From: Truepera sp.
Lineage (GTDB): Bacteria > Deinococcota > Deinococci > Deinococcales > Trueperaceae
Assembly (NCBI GenBank): GCA_965218435.1
Contig: CBDCKW010000005.1
Location: 352,001 to 416,000, forward strand
Length of the DNA: 64,000 nucleotides
Reading direction: 5' to 3'
Positions 5,978 through 9,969 of the stretch are shown one piece after another. Every line of letters begins with the position of its first letter. Position 1 is the first letter of the stretch. A program made the translations under genes and the position numbers. A model generated the notes under the pieces. The model was given only the letters and a program-made list of their open reading frames with translations, had not been told where the DNA came from and made no database searches.

Positions 5978-6370
5978 ATGACCCACAAACTGATCGCGTT
6001 TTTGCTCCTAGCAACCTCTATCGTTGGACACGCCGAGAAGGTAGTACCGGGCAGCCTTCAAGACGTGCAGGCACAAAAACTGTTCGAAGCCTTAAACGCT
6101 GTTCAGGTGGAGTGTCCCGCGTCTCTAGCAGGAATAGAGAGTGACGTGCTGTGCGCCACCACCGCCCAAGACGCACCGACCTTTAGAACGATTGTGGACG
6201 CGAACACCGCGCACCTCAAACCGGTCAGCCTCTGGGCGTCGTACACCAATAAGCACGACCAGCAGCGGTCTTACCTCTATAAAGATGGCTTTATGACCCT
6301 GACCTATTTTCAAGACAAGGCCACGGGTCGCAACTTTATAGTCGTCCAGTACGTGATGCCCCACGATTAG
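5978..6370 (+). CDS. Small secreted hypothetical protein, probably leaderless
   Basis: Signal peptide, two Cys; TAGGTT lies 5 nt before the ATG. Confidence 0.65.
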   Translation: MTHKLIAFLLLATSIVGHAEKVVPGSLQDVQAQKLFEALNAVQVECPASLAGIESDVLCATTAQDAPTFRTIVDANTAHLKPVSLWASYTNKHDQQRSYLYKDGFMTLTYFQDKATGRNFIVVQYVMPHD

Positions 6371-7079
6371 ATACAGACCAACCGCAATAGGTTGCTCACT
6401 TAAGGTTGACCTGCTTGGCGACTTTTTCGTACTTCCGCTGACGTGGCGACCTCGAACCGTCGTCTCCTTACAGGCTTAGGAAGCTCTTTGTGCGCTGACG
6501 CTATCCGAACATGTTCGGGTCTACACTGGCTTTAGCTCATGCCCCTTGAGCGGCGTATAGGCGAGCGGTCCTATGCGCTTTTGCTGGCCTCAAGCTGCAG
6601 GTTTTGTTTGCCCTATACCGCCTTCCTAACATACAATTCTTGAGGACGTTTCCCCTAAGTGTTAGCTTTGTATACTCTAAAAGCCGTGCGTGGATTACCG
6701 TCAGTGGTAGACGCACGGCCTTGCTATCCTGATGTTGATGCCACGCTTTATTGGTAGCTTTCCTTACCTCTGCCGCTGACCATACTGCAAACAAAGCCAC
6801 CGACCTACACGAGAGCAGGAGCGGCAACAACGAAACTTTAGAGGCGTGCAACGGGCGCAACGCTTCCTCTTCACTCACGCCGAGGTCGGAAACCTCTTCC
6901 GTCCCACCCGTACAGGCATCTCTGCTCGGCTACGACGGCGCACCTTGATCCGTGGCTTCAACTTGTGGAACGAGCTGTCGCTTTCAGTTCCCTAATAATC
7001 AAACGAGACCGCTGAAATTACCAAGCCGTCGTAGCTTGCCTTGCTCCATCCAAAACAACTTGATCCTGGTATGTCGTTG

Positions 7080-8018
7080 TCAAGTAGAAGTGAGACTCAA
7101 AACAGGATATTTGGTCCGACTCAGATGTCTAAAAAGCTCACGAGCGATATAGGTTTTCAGGATCCGTAGTGAAGCCCGCTGTGTCTTTCCACGAGCTTTA
7201 AGTTTTGCTAACAGTGCCCTGGTCCTTTTATCACAACGGCTTCTCGTCAGCGCAACGATGTGCAGCGCCCAATTCAAGCGACGGTGGCAACCGTAGTTGA
7301 GTTGCATCCGGCTATTTCTACCGCTGCCTCGTTCTACTGGAGCAGCGCCGCAGTAGCTGGCGAACTGGCCTTCGTTGGCGAACCGCCCAATATTGCCTAC
7401 TTCACCTAGGATGACGCTGGCCACCACGGATCCGACGCCTAAAAGCTCCAGCAGTGTAGGAGCAAAGGTCTTCACCATCATCTTCATCTGTGTGGACAAC
7501 TCGGCTAATTGACTCTCTAAAACTTGAATCACCTGCACTAAGGCAGAGCGAGCAGAGGAACCGCCGGCAAGGGCTTGCAACGCCATCTTGTTGGCTTTAA
7601 GTTGCTCGGATAGGCGGCGTTGTGTCCGGGTAAGGTCTTGAAACTCCCGCTGGGATTGGCTAGGTCGAAACACGGGCAGTTCAGGATTTGCTAGAAGCGC
7701 CCTGGCGGCATTTGAAGCGTCCACAACATCATTCTTCTTCCGGCTTAAACGAGCCCGGTATTGACTCGTGAGGTTCGGAGGAATGTGGTGGACGACCTCA
7801 CCGTGCTCGAGTAACGCGCTTACAAACGGCAAGATGAAACGGTTACCTGCGCCTTCGATAGCCCAACGACGCTTCACGAAAGGAAGCGCGAACTGGTGAA
7901 GTCGTGCCAAACCCGCGGCGTCATTCGAGACTGTCAAAGCTGTGAGCGTTACGCCGTTCTTGTCTAGGGCAGCTACGGTATGGCTGTCTGGATGCGGATC
8001 AAGACCTATCGTGATCAT
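7080..8018 (-). CDS. IS110-family DEDD recombinase/transposase
   Basis: IGLDPHPDSH, WAIEG, KKNDVVDA (DEDD); LGVGSVVA, FASYCGAAPVERGSG (Tnp-domain Ser). Confidence 0.93.
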   Translation of the reverse strand: MITIGLDPHPDSHTVAALDKNGVTLTALTVSNDAAGLARLHQFALPFVKRRWAIEGAGNRFILPFVSALLEHGEVVHHIPPNLTSQYRARLSRKKNDVVDASNAARALLANPELPVFRPSQSQREFQDLTRTQRRLSEQLKANKMALQALAGGSSARSALVQVIQVLESQLAELSTQMKMMVKTFAPTLLELLGVGSVVASVILGEVGNIGRFANEGQFASYCGAAPVERGSGRNSRMQLNYGCHRRLNWALHIVALTRSRCDKRTRALLAKLKARGKTQRASLRILKTYIARELFRHLSRTKYPVLSLTST

Positions 8019-8034
8019 GCGCTACCTCCTATGA

Positions 8035-8185
8035 TGAGGCAGGCACAGCGTACGCATGTCTGAACGGATCATGCCAACGTATCGGCACCCTGGTATCCGG
8101 CGATGCGCCGTGCCCCACTCATAGCGGGGTGTGCAAATCAAGTTGTGGCCATAAACGGCTGACGGAACCTGGGCAACACCCCATG
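8035..8185 (-). ncRNA. Putative IS110 bridge RNA 1 (ends approximate)
   Basis: Structured non-coding end with segments matching the element's flanks (GGTTCCGTC, reverse complement of TCAAGTTG) and its donor ends (ATACCAGG, reverse complement of TCTG). Confidence 0.8.
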
Positions 8186-8198
8186 CTTGTTATACAGA

Positions 8199-8372
8199 CG
8201 GAGCCCCCTGCCGCTTGCGCTCGCCACACTTCGGGGCCTGTACCCGGGGCAGGCCGAGTGGAACCTCATCATGGCTGGCGCAGTTATCACCGTTCTTCCA
8301 ACGATCCTTGTGTTCTTGTTTGCCCAACGTTGGGTGGTCGAAGGTGTGGCTGCTTCGGGGCTGAAGGGGTAG
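8199..8372 (+). pseudogene. 3' fragment of a carbohydrate ABC transporter permease
   Basis: LPLALATLRG...WNLIMAGAVITVLPTILVFLFAQRWVVEGVAASGLKG* is a typical MalG-type C-terminus; the 5' part is missing. Confidence 0.8.
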
Positions 8373-8629
8373 ACGTACCGTTCTCGCCCTATGCAGCTAC
8401 GGTGTGACTGTTTGGGTGGGGATCAAGACCAATGGCAATCATGCTGCCTTACATCTCATATGAGAAGGCGGACACGGCATGCGCACGTCTGAAGGGATCA
8501 AGCCTTATGGCACCCTGTTATCTGGCGATGCGCCGTACCCCACTTATGGGTGAGGGTATGCAGATCAAGTTATGGCCACACTGTCGGGGCTGACGCAACC
8601 CGGGCAAAACCCTCAGCTTGTTACACAGA
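8373..8629 (-). mobile_element. Truncated second IS110: intact non-coding left end plus about 24 transposase codons with a premature TAG
   Basis: From 8442: MIAIGLDPHPNSHTVAA*GENGTS versus MITIGLDPHPDSHTVAALDKNGVT in the full copy; upstream non-coding region homologous to 8019-8198. Confidence 0.85.
8465..8617 (-). ncRNA. Putative orphan IS110 bridge RNA 2 (ends approximate)
   Basis: Same scaffold as 8035-8185 with altered loops; guide GGTTGCGTC (8592-8600) is identical to its own flank plus core (8628-8636). Confidence 0.75.
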
Positions 8630-8702
8630 CGCAACCCATAAAGGTGCTGGGCATGCTCCACGTTAGGAGAGCGAACGGCGTACGGTCGCCGCGAGCCTCG
8701 AG

Positions 8703-9611
8703 TTACCGACCGGCGGGCACCACGATGCGAGCGCGGGCGCGGCGGCGTTTTCCCTCAGGGATAAGCAGCACGAAGTTGGAGAACCGGCTCTTGAAGACGT
8801 GCACCACGCATGGGACGGGGCCGTGGAGTCCCAGCAACGTCAGATCGGTGTCGACGTCTTCGAACGCGCCGCCTCTCGGACCGGCCAGGGGTTGGAGGAA
8901 GTCGACGCTCGCAGGCAGACCTTCGGGGCGCAGCCAGGCAGGGAAGGTGCGCGTGAACGCCGCCGACTCGTGCAGGCGCGTCACAGGGTAGTACGCGCCA
9001 ACGCTAGTGACGAGAGGGGTCGTGCCGAGAACCAGCATCGCGCAAGATTCGGGATGACGCTCGACGTAGCGGCGGAGGGTGGCGTGGACCGAGCCGCCGT
9101 ACACCCGGGACAGCTGAAGCGGCGTGCGCAACTCCAGCGAGAGATCCCGGATGTCACGGTCGAACCGTCCGCCTTGAAACATAACCTCGGACGCGAACCG
9201 GTTCGCCTCGGCCTCGAACAGGTCTTTCACGTCGTCGGAGAGCGTCGATTCATTGTCGAGGTGCAGCATGATGTCGCGTTGCCAGGGGAGAACCTTATGG
9301 CCGATCTCGTGCAGCGTGACGAAGTTCTGCTTGGCAGCGTTGACAGTGGTGTCGAGGTAGATGACGCGCTCGCGCAGGTCGACCATGCCCATGGCCTTGC
9401 GCAAAGCGGACGCGAGCAGCTTGTAGTTGCGCGTGAAGAACCCCTCGTGCGGCTCGGTCAGGTTGATGTCCTGGGAGACGACGAGTTCCGCGCAGGCGAG
9501 CAAGTCATCAATGGGGGTGGGAAGGCGGTCGCCGACGCCAGCGCGCTCCAGAAGCAGGCGGGCGTAGCGCGCGACCTCGTCCTGCTCAGCCAAGCTTTGC
9601 CTTACGGGCAC
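8703..9611 (-). CDS. ImmA/IrrE-family Zn metallopeptidase (CapP-like)
   Basis: NFVTLHEIGHKVLPW (HExxH) and FEAEANRFASE; overlaps the upstream HTH gene. Confidence 0.88.
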   Translation of the reverse strand: MPVRQSLAEQDEVARYARLLLERAGVGDRLPTPIDDLLACAELVVSQDINLTEPHEGFFTRNYKLLASALRKAMGMVDLRERVIYLDTTVNAAKQNFVTLHEIGHKVLPWQRDIMLHLDNESTLSDDVKDLFEAEANRFASEVMFQGGRFDRDIRDLSLELRTPLQLSRVYGGSVHATLRRYVERHPESCAMLVLGTTPLVTSVGAYYPVTRLHESAAFTRTFPAWLRPEGLPASVDFLQPLAGPRGGAFEDVDTDLTLLGLHGPVPCVVHVFKSRFSNFVLLIPEGKRRRARARIVVPAGR

Positions 9612-9969
9612 GCAGGAACGTCAAGTACTCGGCGAGCGCCTCTTCTTCTTCAAAAGTCAGGTTCTGCAGGGTGGACATCGCGGCACCGGCCAGTGAACGG
9701 TGTTGGTCGGCCTGCCTCTTCACGAGGTACCCGGCGGCCTGCATGAGCTGGTCGTAGTTTACTTGGTACAACTCGGCGAGCTTGTACAGCTTGTCGGGCG
9801 ACGGCTTCTCGATCCGTCCGGTCTCGACCTGGCTGAGATAGGCGTTGCTGATGCCCGTCGCTCGCTCGACGTCCTTGAGCGTAAACGCGTGCAGTTGCCG
9901 TAAGCGGCGTAGTTCGGCCCCGAGGACGTTCTCGGCGGCCGGGGTAACGGCTTCGGTCGTGGCCATCAT
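9586..9969 (-). CDS. XRE-family HTH repressor (CapH-like)
   Basis: LRRLRQ...TLKDVERATGISNAYLSQVETG HTH; C-terminal LTFEEEEALAEYLTFLR helix of SinR/CapH type. Confidence 0.88.
   Translation of the reverse strand: MMATTEAVTPAAENVLGAELRRLRQLHAFTLKDVERATGISNAYLSQVETGRIEKPSPDKLYKLAELYQVNYDQLMQAAGYLVKRQADQHRSLAGAAMSTLQNLTFEEEEALAEYLTFLRARKAKLG

Follow-up and report, generated by a model that had tools for sequence, protein, structure and literature searches.

Positions 8373–8636 of the window, i.e., of the whole 64,000-nt stretch of Truepera sp. DNA that was analysed, very probably represent a solo left end in decay, left over from a second and diverged ("B-type") IS110-family element. This orphan (copy 2) keeps its left end (LE), has lost its right end and most of its recombinase gene, and carries a bridge-RNA gene situated 430 nt upstream of copy 1, an apparently intact element. 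The original prediction had raised the possibility that the two bridge RNAs feed one and the same enzyme, and no positive support was obtained for it: no promoter-like site was found for the orphan, the A of its −10 box is lost, its donor change is decay-like, the recombinase of its lineage is dead, and the predicted target of its RNA has no genomic site within one mismatch. The RNA of copy 2 would thus most likely neither be expressed at useful levels nor serve the recombinase of copy 1.

Anatomy of the Two Elements

The layouts of both copies are read on the minus strand. Copy 1 is preceded by GGCTCCG (8205–8199) and the core TC (8198–8197), which together (8197–8205) form the 9-nt tip of the right inverted repeat belonging to an IS6-family element. 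Its LE and bridge-RNA gene span 8019–8196, include a −10 box (TATAAC, 8194–8189), and score 157.1 bits with the covariance model R1, copy 1 itself being one of the training sequences. The adjoining gene (7080–8018) encodes an apparently intact IS110-family DEDD recombinase of 312 aa, which matches PF01548 (E-value, 5.3e-19) and PF02371 (E-value, 1.5e-18), and aligns from residue 1 to residue 312 with the recombinases of the related loci L020 (83% identity) and L067, L071 and L073 (82%). The right end (RE) and target of copy 1 (7055–7083, with the RE extending to 7064) contain a −35 element TTGACA (7083–7078) that overlaps the recombinase stop codon, the left donor ATACCAGGA (7072–7064), the core TC (7063–7062), and the right target AAGTTGT (7061–7055). 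The right ends of eight loci share the motif CTTGACA-N6-ATACCAGG-(A/T)TC, and the donor guide (LDG) of copy 1, ATACCAGG, is identical to its own right end at 8/8 positions.

In copy 2, the left target (LT) GGTTGCG (8630–8636), which makes up the terminal 7 nt of an IS6-family inverted repeat, is directly followed by the core TC (8629–8628) and by the LE with the orphan bridge-RNA gene (8443–8627; R1 score, 117.5 bits). Located within the latter are a −10 remnant TGTAAC (8625–8620), the left-target guide (LTG) GGTTGCGTC (8600–8592), the complement of the RTG (8565–8573, tcaagttat on the plus strand), and the LDG ATAACAGG (8521–8514). Next comes a recombinase stump of about 22 codons (8376–8442), homologous to the recombinase genes of copy 1, L002 and L014. 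It begins with an ATG at 8442–8440, has a TAG at codon 18 (8391–8389), and retains 66 nt of coding sequence, its homology to IS110 recombinases stopping at about 8375–8376; the remainder of the gene is deleted. A second IS110 left end with a full scaffold and a transposase that ends at codon 18 and is then deleted, as originally described, was found again (LE, 8627–8443; TAG, 8391–8389; end of homology, about 8375). The same description had left room for a decaying nested insertion. Decay proved to be the better of its two readings, while nesting of copy 2 in copy 1 was rejected, since copy 2 has an IS6 end of its own, and its proximity to copy 1 would be due to a deletion that brought a separate insertion near.

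Bridge-RNA Fold and Family Membership

Model R1 was built from 12 full-length relatives only. It matches copy 2 over the full model length with an E-value of about 1e-28 to 1e-30, a resemblance far beyond chance. The consensus fold consists of two stem/internal-loop domains, and compensatory changes are found at 25 of its 36 pairs among the 12 full-length relatives. In a set of 19 model-aligned sequences (18 distinct), the share of paired cells was 90.0% versus 74.1% in shuffles, none of 500 shuffles equalling the observed value, and 27 of the 36 pairs change on both sides (slid controls, 30.7–51.5%), all counted on an alignment that was fitted to R1 and in which 12 of the 19 rows are R1 training sequences. 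Copy 2 keeps 30/36 of the consensus pairs and copy 1 keeps 32/36. The mean column identity of the two left ends is 79%, or 74% (46 differences in 177 columns) on the model-fitted alignment, and a comparison of both confirmed that the hairpin loops vary and the closing stems stay. In single-sequence folding, neither copy differed significantly from shuffles (MFE z-score: copy 2, +0.32; copy 1, −0.33), a measure that is not informative where an RNA has large internal loops. A search of Rfam 15, which may hold no bridge-RNA family, gave no matches in the whole window at gathering thresholds.

According to the description of IS621 and the IS110 group, the RNA originates from the left end, upstream of the DEDD recombinase gene, and the IS621 bridge RNA has two internal loops, one of which reads the target halves around a 2-nt core, and the other the element's own ends (Durrant et al. 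2024, PMC11208160). An RNA in the left non-coding end, on the same strand and directly 5' of a DEDD gene, is what was found in full in copy 1 and, before the 22-codon stump, in copy 2. On sequence grounds, both the orphan and the copy 1 RNA genes are of the IS110-group bridge-RNA kind.

IS6-Family Inverted Repeats as the Target

This IS110 clade targets the terminal inverted repeats of IS6-family elements and inserts 9 nt inside them. The left ends of copy 1 and copy 2 each lie 9 nt inside such a repeat. The sequences of the two 9-nt flanks had been given correctly in the original prediction; in fact, they are the 9-nt tips of IS6-family inverted repeats. The flank 9-mer of copy 2 also opens an IS6 inverted repeat at G000:C5:493650, an example of the G-type repeat variants present in this genome. 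Unoccupied GGTTCCGTCAAGTTGT-type sites come as inverted pairs that bound an 854-bp element with a PF13610 transposase. The element at G000:C5:241392–242245 (854 bp; ends GGTTCCGTCAAGTTAC and GGCTCCGTCAAGTTAT) contains a 245-aa ORF with a match to PF13610 (DDE_Tnp_IS240; E-value, 3.8e-33) and has the features of a member of the IS6 family.

When copy 1 is removed in silico, 8205–8197 becomes contiguous with 7061–7045, and the joined sequence is like the right IS6 repeats C5:242230(−) and C5:494820(−). The remnant of the IS6-family element that was struck by copy 1 lies at 6789–7054 on the plus strand and comprises the transposase C-terminus together with the inner portion of the right inverted repeat. 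Its C-terminal 68 codons (6789–6992) show 54% identity to residues 178–245 of the 245-aa transposase (tblastn; E-value, 1e-18), and this fragment and the repeat are all that the window holds of the IS6 element. A half-match origin of the left flank of copy 1, with the neighbouring permease supplying its GGCTCCG, was considered and rejected: a related permease contig shows permease homology from 8206 only, and hence the GGCTCCG-TC 9-mer is the tip of an IS6 inverted repeat and the insertion of copy 1 is canonical.

The association extends to other members of the clade, which was found in Deinococcota-related and Acidobacteriota records. Coding sequence for an IS6-type transposase is located 30–190 nt past the right end in L020, L025, L028/L034 and L051, and is also present in L067 and L073. 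An IS110 clade that targets IS6 ends was not found by title or abstract opening in the literature searched. A member of the IS110/IS1111 family is similar in that it specifically targets another transposable element at the terminal inverted repeat, and is unlike the present clade, which belongs to the IS110-type subgroup (RNA upstream of the gene) and has an IS6-family element as its host. An IS110 clade residing in IS6 ends is a case of one transposon parasitising another, and homing to IS6 tips accounts for the side-by-side piling up of its copies.

Guides and Their Flanks

The left-target guide of copy 2 (GGTTGCGTC) and its flank (GGTTGCGTC) agree at 9/9 positions, core included, and so the identity that had been predicted for 8628–8636 was recovered. 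The guide of copy 1 (GGTTCCGTC) agrees with its flank (GGCTCCGTC) at 8/9. Among 16 close-clade copies, LTG and flank match at 9/9 positions in six cases, at 8/9 in eight and at 7/9 in two, which makes one-mismatch insertions (8/16) the commonest class in the clade; a C-guide is found in a G-site in L074 and L014. Guide position 5 is concordant with the target in 14 of these 16 copies, and the specificity of copy 2 is for this reason genuinely unlike that of copy 1. Position 6 is concordant in 10/16 only, with all six copies that have a T on either side being discordant. It had also been claimed that guide and flank change together at the same position. The co-variation is real, but it is not an event private to this locus, being a single change shared within a sub-lineage that includes copy 2, L003, L020 and others.

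The left-target 7-mer and the guide of the same copy agree on average at 5.2/7 positions, versus 2.8/7 in cross pairings, means that include two rows judged to be misregistered (L025 and L024). For the right target, the corresponding means are 5.2/7 and 3.1/7, including two rows to be set aside, namely the degenerate right end of L002 and a spurious regex match in the case of copy 2. The core and right target of copy 1 match the reverse complement of RTG1 at 9/9 positions, seven other loci reach 7–9/9, and the right flank of copy 2 is deleted.

Divergence and Decay of Copy 2

Copy 2 deviates from the clade at 4 of 52 conserved columns. Two of these deviations constitute a compensatory change from a G-C to an A-U pair that is shared with siblings, and the other two are private: an A to G change at the −10/RD position, where the A is invariant in 12/12 full-length relatives, and a C to A change in the LDG, at a position that is conserved in at least 11/12 full-length relatives and is also altered in the second orphan, L004. 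The donor guides of copy 2 (ATAACAGG) and copy 1 (ATACCAGG) do differ, as had been reported, and are one base apart; the LDG of copy 2 is one base off both the right end of copy 1 and the clade consensus, its own right end being lost. Reprogramming of the donor guide, however, is not borne out, and the change, private as it is and located at a conserved position that was hit in L004 too, looks like decay.

Copy 2 is the most diverged of the five left ends that its genome contains, and also the one with the lowest R1 score. It differs from the A-type copies by 24–28%, whereas its siblings L003 and L014 are only 17–18% different from L020. Its consensus-fold energy is −15.6 kcal/mol, in comparison with −31.6 kcal/mol for copy 1. 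Between copy 2 and L014, the difference amounts to 19.2% over the RNA gene and to about 10/69 (hand count) over the dead recombinase stump, which means that the RNA gene of copy 2 is no better conserved than the stump.

The GCA-TAG-GGC of codons 17–19 is common to copy 2 and L014, a pseudogene that resides in another genome and has a different flank. Intact relatives read Ala-Leu-Asp at these codons, and the intact B-like L067, L071 and L073 are free of the TAG. The nonsense codon being common to copy 2 and L014, the recombinase of the sub-lineage was dead before copy 2 was truncated.

The points that were counted against decay include a largely intact scaffold, a 9/9 LTG, an LDG that is one base off, the trans-acting RNAs of IS621, and a stretch upstream with no terminator-like site.

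Expression and Target Sites of the Orphan RNA

The sigma-70-type promoter described for IS621 has its −35 element in the right end and its −10 element in the left end, and is rebuilt once the element has become circular (PMC11208160). The natural promoter needs a right-end −35 element joined in the circle, and copy 2 is without a right end; for copy 1, the predicted junction promoter would be TTGACA-N18-TATAAC. A search of both strands of 7900–9000 revealed no promoter-like site. Read-through into the RNA of copy 2 (RNA 2) has only one evident source, an upstream gene for an M78/IrrE-like peptidase (8703–9611, minus strand; PF06114, 8.2e-08), which ends 67 nt before the flank of copy 2; the stretch between this gene and the flank (8703 to 8636) gave no terminator-like site.

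By way of such read-through, or from an unrecognised promoter, RNA 2 might act as a working second guide, which would be loaded in trans by the copy 1 recombinase and would add the G-type repeat GGTTGCG-TC-AAGTTAT to its targets. We regard this as very unlikely. The lack of a terminator-like site between the same-strand upstream gene and RNA 2 does leave read-through possible, but the search revealed no promoter-like site, and the −10 A is lost. The scaffold is full-length (117.5 bits) and keeps 30/36 pairs, but its consensus-fold energy amounts to about half the copy 1 value, copy 2 is the most diverged copy, and the cuts in other remnants fall anywhere in the RNA gene. A bridge RNA supplied in trans works for IS621 (PMC11208160), but the LDG of RNA 2 has a mismatch to the right end of copy 1 at the position conserved in at least 11/12 full-length relatives. 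As for targets, the guide differs from that of copy 1 at the position that follows the target in 14/16 copies, and G-type variants of the IS6 repeat do exist in the genome (e.g., C5:493650); however, the predicted target GGTTGCG-TC-AAGTTAT has no genomic site under two mismatches and seven sites at two. The predicted target of the copy 1 RNA (RNA 1) has one perfect and one one-mismatch genomic site, and since one-mismatch insertions are the commonest (8/16) and L074 and L014 each have a C-guide in a G-site, RNA 1 may reach G-sites anyway. If RNA 2 did work, it would steer copy 1 circles into G-type IS6 repeats despite one donor-loop mismatch, and one recombinase gene together with scattered guide genes (three orphans here) would follow the sequence variants of the IS6 hosts. 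Natural multi-guide bridge recombination would matter; the evidence favours ordinary IS wreckage, and the hope is marked down. In the decaying left end that we favour, the two-loop scaffold and the flank-matching guide would be a fossil of copy 2's own insertion.

Deletion Junction and Neighbourhood

The stump of copy 2 joins the 3' end of a permease gene at 8373–8375, where ACG (plus strand) may be assigned to either side, i.e., at a 3-nt microhomology. A related permease contig in metagenome run X1 aligns up to 8375, and the homology with L014 runs to about 8376. The permease fragment (8206–8372, plus strand) consists of the last 54 codons and the stop codon of a gene for a binding-protein-dependent transport permease, the left side of which is cut by the IS6 end. 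It shows 46% identity (E-value, 2e-14) to the last 52 residues of a paralog, L076:65-940(−), which itself matches PF00528 (3.2e-20); a Pfam search with the fragment alone gave no match, and the paralog L075 has no suitable ORF. A contig of the unrelated metagenome run X4 spans the deletion junction (8297–8510, 3 differences). Both junctions of copy 2 recur in contigs of an unrelated metagenome run, and the layout is therefore a stable one in at least one near-identical strain. Two kinds of aberrant joint in the metagenomes were discarded: a joint in run X1 that skips from 8120 to 8546 is not a deletion variant, its loose end being the flank of L003, and two joints in run X3 that go back derive from low-depth contigs of other copies.

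We propose that two IS6 ends in the same orientation, situated in an IS-rich region, each took in an IS110 element, and that the B-type recombinase already bore the inherited nonsense codon. A later illegitimate deletion at the 3-nt microhomology would have removed the rest of the gene, the right end, the IS6 host and the intervening DNA, leaving the bridge-RNA gene of copy 2 430 nt upstream of that of copy 1. The tandem layout would thus result from two clustered IS6 ends and the later deletion.

Alternatively, the orphan might be a product of the recombinase, namely a partial IS110 module that consists of a left end alone and was moved or duplicated through half-match recombination. There are 468 reported cases of tandem non-coding repeat units adjoining an IS110 transposase, as well as partial circles in which the left terminus is used again and which reintegrate (Hu et al. 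2026, 10.64898/2026.08.14.744561). Like these expanded loci, as far as they are described there, the present one has more than one non-coding module by one recombinase gene, and partial fragments persist. Unlike them, its modules are diverged siblings, each in its own IS6 tip, which are joined by microhomology with no donor-half match at the junction, and the left ends, being only 74–79% identical, speak against a local duplication. The dinucleotide TC does occur at the 3' junction of copy 2 (GGTACG-TC-TACCCC), but it is expected by chance about once in 16 positions; the TACCCCT that follows is unlike the predicted right target AAGTTAT, and the preceding sequence is unlike the left donor. The left flank is the tip of a normal IS6 repeat, which is what an ordinary full insertion would have, and the stump holds 66 nt of coding sequence with the inherited nonsense codon, which makes such an origin very unlikely. 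The DNA encoding the LTG resembles the left half of the target, and two remnants elsewhere (L018 and L066) break exactly in it, which fits the recently proposed half-match recombination.

Remnants in This and Other Genomes

A search of the genome for a complete sibling of copy 2 and for other orphan ends had been suggested. It yielded three matches, all of them left ends, and consequently no complete sibling; orphan ends do occur, with three in all versus two full copies. A complete sibling was not found in the plasmid collection either. The exact 23-nt string spanning the TAG had 0 metagenome matches, and a degenerate 22-nt pattern of the 5' stem found 14 loci, with 11 R1 hits and three intact 312-aa genes. 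None of these degenerate-pattern loci has a TAG at codon 18; L074 has another nonsense codon, at codon 20. In a phylum-wide scan, 6 of 151 sampled genomes had an R1 match, which is too few for an estimate of orphan frequency.

All three remnants in the genome (3/3) keep the whole RNA gene and are cut 3–66 nt after the ATG, positions that by themselves look non-random. Within the clade, however, remnants end at about 33 nt (L066), 45 nt (L018), 135 nt (L050), 188 nt (L004), 215 nt (L003) and 252 nt (copy 2), and L068 ends inside the RNA gene. Selection for retention of the whole RNA was dropped as an explanation because truncation points in the remnants from other genomes and from metagenomes lie at about 33, 45 and 135 nt, as well as inside the RNA gene. 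L003, the third left end, is like copy 2 in its 5' half and like copy 1 in its 3' half, and the orphans L003 and L004 carry different, unrelated defects. That the orphan RNA is a regulator or decoy, which titrates the recombinase or occupies IS6 ends without recombination owing to a mismatched donor loop, is hardly credible, since its intact target loop beside an altered donor loop and the three orphans versus two full copies would suit such a role, but the promoter search of 7900–9000 gave no expression signal, the defects of L003 and L004 differ and are unrelated, remnants elsewhere are truncated within the RNA gene, and conservation of the RNA gene does not exceed that of the dead coding stump.

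Comparison with Known Systems

The core of IS621 is CT. The core of the present clade is TC, its target is an IS6-family inverted repeat and not a REP element as described for IS621, and copy 2 is without a recombinase and a right end; the left-end RNA, the two loops and the split promoter are features that the clade has in common with IS621. Stand-alone copies of an RNA module are also found in the genome in the case of ssr9 of the IS110-family element ISPpu9, and these were proposed to be mobile with the transposase acting in trans (PMC12288879). As it is described there, ssr9 is a downstream small RNA, and its copies are MITE-like with both IS-like ends, unlike copy 2, which has a left end only and for which no donor junction is possible. 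The sixteen natural guide/target pairs of the clade provide data on the tolerance of mismatches by guide position.

Organization of the Two Left Ends

Copy 1, on the minus strand, is apparently an intact IS110-family element: its left end (LE) starts at 8196, its 312-aa recombinase (PF01548, 5.3e-19; PF02371, 1.5e-18) is encoded at 8018..7080, and its right end (RE) stops at 7064. Copy 2, an orphan left end on the same strand (8627..8443), lies 430 bases upstream and aligns to the left end of copy 1 with a mean column identity of 79%. The alignment runs past the ATG at 8442 into 22 recombinase codons, of which codon 18 (8391..8389, minus strand) is TAG, and the homology ends at about 8375, abutting the stop codon of an opposite-strand gene fragment. 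Thus, the original prediction of a second IS110 left end with a dead, soon deleted transposase was confirmed. The abutting fragment (8206-8372, opposite strand), consisting of 54 final codons, shares 46% identity (E 2e-14) with the C-terminus of a PF00528-matching paralog, by which it is identified as the tail of a binding-protein-dependent transport permease gene; a Pfam search of the fragment by itself gave no match.

Directly upstream of copy 2 (8703-9969, minus strand) lie two genes arranged like ImmA/IrrE-type regulator pairs, one for a protein labeled by eye as XRE-type helix-turn-helix (127 aa), the other for an M78/IrrE-like peptidase (302 aa, PF06114 at 8e-08). The approximately 390 nt (6400-6788) between a small secreted-protein ORF (5978-6370) and an IS6 transposase fragment contain no notable ORF, and an Rfam search of this region matched nothing.

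Bridge RNA Fold

A search of public genomes with the copy 1 recombinase yielded 23 related loci from Deinococcota-related, Acidobacteriota, Chloroflexota and other records. RNAalifold analysis of the aligned left ends of 12 full-length elements revealed two stem/internal-loop domains with 36 pairs, 25 of which show compensatory changes. A covariance model (R1) was trained on these 12 left ends, and 19 sequences were then aligned to it. In this alignment, which is fitted to R1 itself and includes the training set as 12 of its rows, 90.0% of the cells are paired, as against 74.1% in shuffles (0/500 reach the observed value) and 31-52% in slid controls, and both sides have changed in 27 of the 36 pairs. 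An Rfam search of the whole window gave no match. In its layout, the locus conforms to the IS110-group bridge RNA described by Durrant et al. (2024), and the left end of copy 2 is, by its predicted fold, a bridge RNA gene. For IS621, bridge RNA expression from genomic loci is reported to be only weak (Hiraizumi et al. 2026).

The bridge RNA gene of L014, a pseudogene copy of the B-type sub-lineage to which copy 2 belongs, is enlarged in the donor-binding domain by an insertion of 39 nt that forms a separate hairpin (L014:1383-1602, minus strand). Two weak R1 matches on the main chromosome of the genome under study (G000:C9:1403839-1404012, 42.3 bits; C9:773919-774032, 37.7 bits) have no adjoining copy 1-like recombinase; they were probably left behind by an IS110 lineage that is more distantly related.

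Guides and Junction Promoter

The first loop repeats, within its 5' strand, the 9 nt that precede each left end (9/9 in the related loci L028 and L020, 8/9 in L022). The right ends have in common CTTGACA-N6-ATACCAGG-(A/T)TC, and the sequence right after TC is complementary to the 3' strand of this first loop (9/9 in copy 1 and L020, 7-8/9 in six further loci). Own guide/target pairings average 5.2/7 on the left and right alike, and cross pairings 2.8/7 (left target) and 3.1/7 (right target), where the left-side means take in two rows judged misregistered (L025, L024) and the right-side means two rows to be disregarded (the degenerate right end of L002 and a false regex match in copy 2). Judged by these pairings, the first-loop strands behave as target guides. 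The first strand of the second loop contains ATACCAGG, the same as the right-end tip. When RE and LE are joined, TTGACA and TATAAC come to stand 18 nt apart; a promoter of this type is described at the RE-LE junction of IS621 (PMC11208160), and the copy 1 junction corresponds to it.

The second full-length copy of the same genome, L002 (G000:C5:about 96900-98047, 312 aa), terminates in a degenerate right end (ATACCAGATGG...) without a matching right target. It adjoins a truncated PF01548 ORF from another, different IS110-family transposase and is probably immobile. The orphan left end L003 (G000:C5:423732-423920), with TT in place of TC in the guide core, has a 5' half similar to that of copy 2 and a 3' half similar to that of copy 1, which suggests recombination or conversion between left ends; an apparent "skip" joint in contig mapping was false and caused by L003.

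IS6 Inverted Repeats as Target

The genome was scanned for the targets predicted from RNA 1 and RNA 2, the bridge RNAs of copies 1 and 2. RNA 1 matches one unoccupied site perfectly (C5:534939) and one other site with 1 mismatch. Near-match sites come as inverted pairs spaced 0.16-1.2 kb, and one pair bounds an 854-bp element (G000:C5:241392-242245), whose 245-aa ORF matches PF13610, the IS6/IS240-type DDE domain, at 3.8e-33. The 16-nt target therefore coincides with the tip of IS6-family inverted repeats, which IS110 elements of this clade enter 9 nt from the outer end. The sequence past the copy 1 right end carries on as an IS6 repeat, and further on, 6789-6992 encode the 68 C-terminal residues of an IS6 transposase (54% identity, E 1e-18). 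Since permease homology, according to a contig of a related organism, starts only at 8206, the 9-mer at 8197-8205 belongs to the IS6 tip rather than to the permease gene. Coding sequence for IS6-type transposases occurs 30-190 nt past the right end in L020, L025, L028/L034, L051, L067 and L073, relatives from several phyla, and GGTT(C/G)(C/T)GTC-type 9-mers precede all five left ends of the genome and nine from metagenomes. IS4321 and IS5075 are known to home into the inverted repeats of Tn21-type transposons, and the present clade resembles them in homing into the inverted repeat of another transposon; a literature search of titles and abstract openings found nothing on an IS110 clade homing to IS6 ends.

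Outside the window, IS6-tip target sites lie at G000:C5:493650-494835 and 534939-535098. The latter is a 160-bp ORF-less element between IS6-type repeat tips in inverted orientation, of which one is a perfect RNA 1 target and the other has 1 mismatch; in appearance it is an IS6-derived MITE.

Probable Decay of Copy 2

Copy 2 is very likely the decaying, solo left end that remains of a dead sibling element; insertion of both copies into IS6 tips, together with a deletion, would account for its position next to copy 1. The original prediction had raised the possibility of two guides serving one recombinase, and the reading of RNA 2 as a trans-acting spare guide does have points for it. Its gene scores 117.5 bits against R1 across the whole length, keeps 30/36 pairs (copy 1, 32/36), and departs from conserved columns at four positions, two of which form a compensatory pair common to its siblings. 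The 9/9 match of the left-target guide to its own flank was found again, and at guide position 5, where copy 2 differs from copy 1, guide equals target in 14/16 close copies. Bridge RNAs are able to act in trans (PMC11208160), and no terminator-like site was found between the upstream same-strand gene and copy 2.

Such a guide is nevertheless very unlikely. Codons 17-19 read GCA-TAG-GGC both in copy 2 and in L014, a frameshifted pseudogene with a different flank in another genome, while L067, L071 and L073 (intact, 312 aa, 82% identity, same 5' stem type) encode Ala-Leu-Asp; because L014 has the same codons, the recombinase of this lineage is taken to have been dead before copy 2 was truncated. 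Copy 2 differs from A-type copies by 24-28% (L003 and L014 from L020 by 17-18%), has the lowest R1 score among the five left ends of its genome, and reaches a consensus-fold energy of -15.6 kcal/mol versus -31.6 for copy 1. From L014 it differs by 19.2% across the RNA gene and at about 10/69 positions in the stump (manual count); by this comparison, the RNA gene is conserved no better than the dead stump. Two changes are private to copy 2: one affects the A of the -10 box TATAAC, which does not vary among the 12/12 full-length relatives, the other the C of ATACCAGG, which at least 11/12 retain. The donor guide does differ, as the original prediction states, and the difference lies in a conserved C, but the orphan L004 is altered at the same base, which looks like relaxed constraint, so that the difference is better read as damage than as reprogramming. 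A search of both strands from 7900 to 9000 gave no promoter-like site, and the native -35 is in the right end, which copy 2 has lost. The genome scan for the predicted RNA 2 target found no site closer than 2 mismatches. Moreover, insertions with one mismatch form the largest class in the clade (8/16) and C-guides occupy G-sites in L074 and L014, so RNA 1 may manage G-type sites without RNA 2. A literature search of titles and abstract openings found nothing on orphan bridge RNAs as working guides. With the most diverged left end and private changes at key positions, decay, which the original prediction had named as its alternative, is preferred. In L074, a further copy of the clade on a metagenome contig, codon 20 has independently become a nonsense codon (GAG>TAG).

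In the decaying-left-end reading, copy 2 would have inserted in the tip of a second IS6 end abutting 8637, its IS6 host having the same orientation as that of copy 1, and a deletion would have produced the present 430-nt spacing. IS6 copies are clustered in this part of contig C5, and the side-by-side layout would be due to this clustering, not to a functional operon. That the recombinase itself made copy 2 as a partial module has a very low probability. Tandem or partial IS110 modules beside a recombinase, and half-match recombination, are described in two preprints (Hu et al. 2026; Xie et al. 2026); in contrast to those loci, the modules here are diverged siblings that an ordinary deletion would have joined, and the junction at 8373-8375, with three bases assignable to either side, has no likeness to core-plus-target or donor end. 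A decoy role for the copy 2 RNA is likewise very improbable.

Orphan Left Ends in Other Loci

The genome holds other orphan ends: three of its five left ends are orphan (copy 2, L003, L004), all cut less than 70 nt from the recombinase start. Selection for retention of the whole RNA, suggested by the three similar cuts, was rejected, as remnants in other records break off at widely scattered positions. The break falls at about 33 nt in L066 and at about 45 nt in L018, in each case within the DNA encoding the left-target guide; L050 stops at about 135 nt and lacks a recombinase; L068 is truncated within the RNA gene; and L014 and L052 keep frameshifted genes. In L018 (G003:C30) and L066 (metagenome contig), the guide-encoding breakpoint resembles the left half of the target plus core, and the L066 break is joined to an inverted copy of a flank/left-end junction; these breaks may be due to self-directed half-match recombination.
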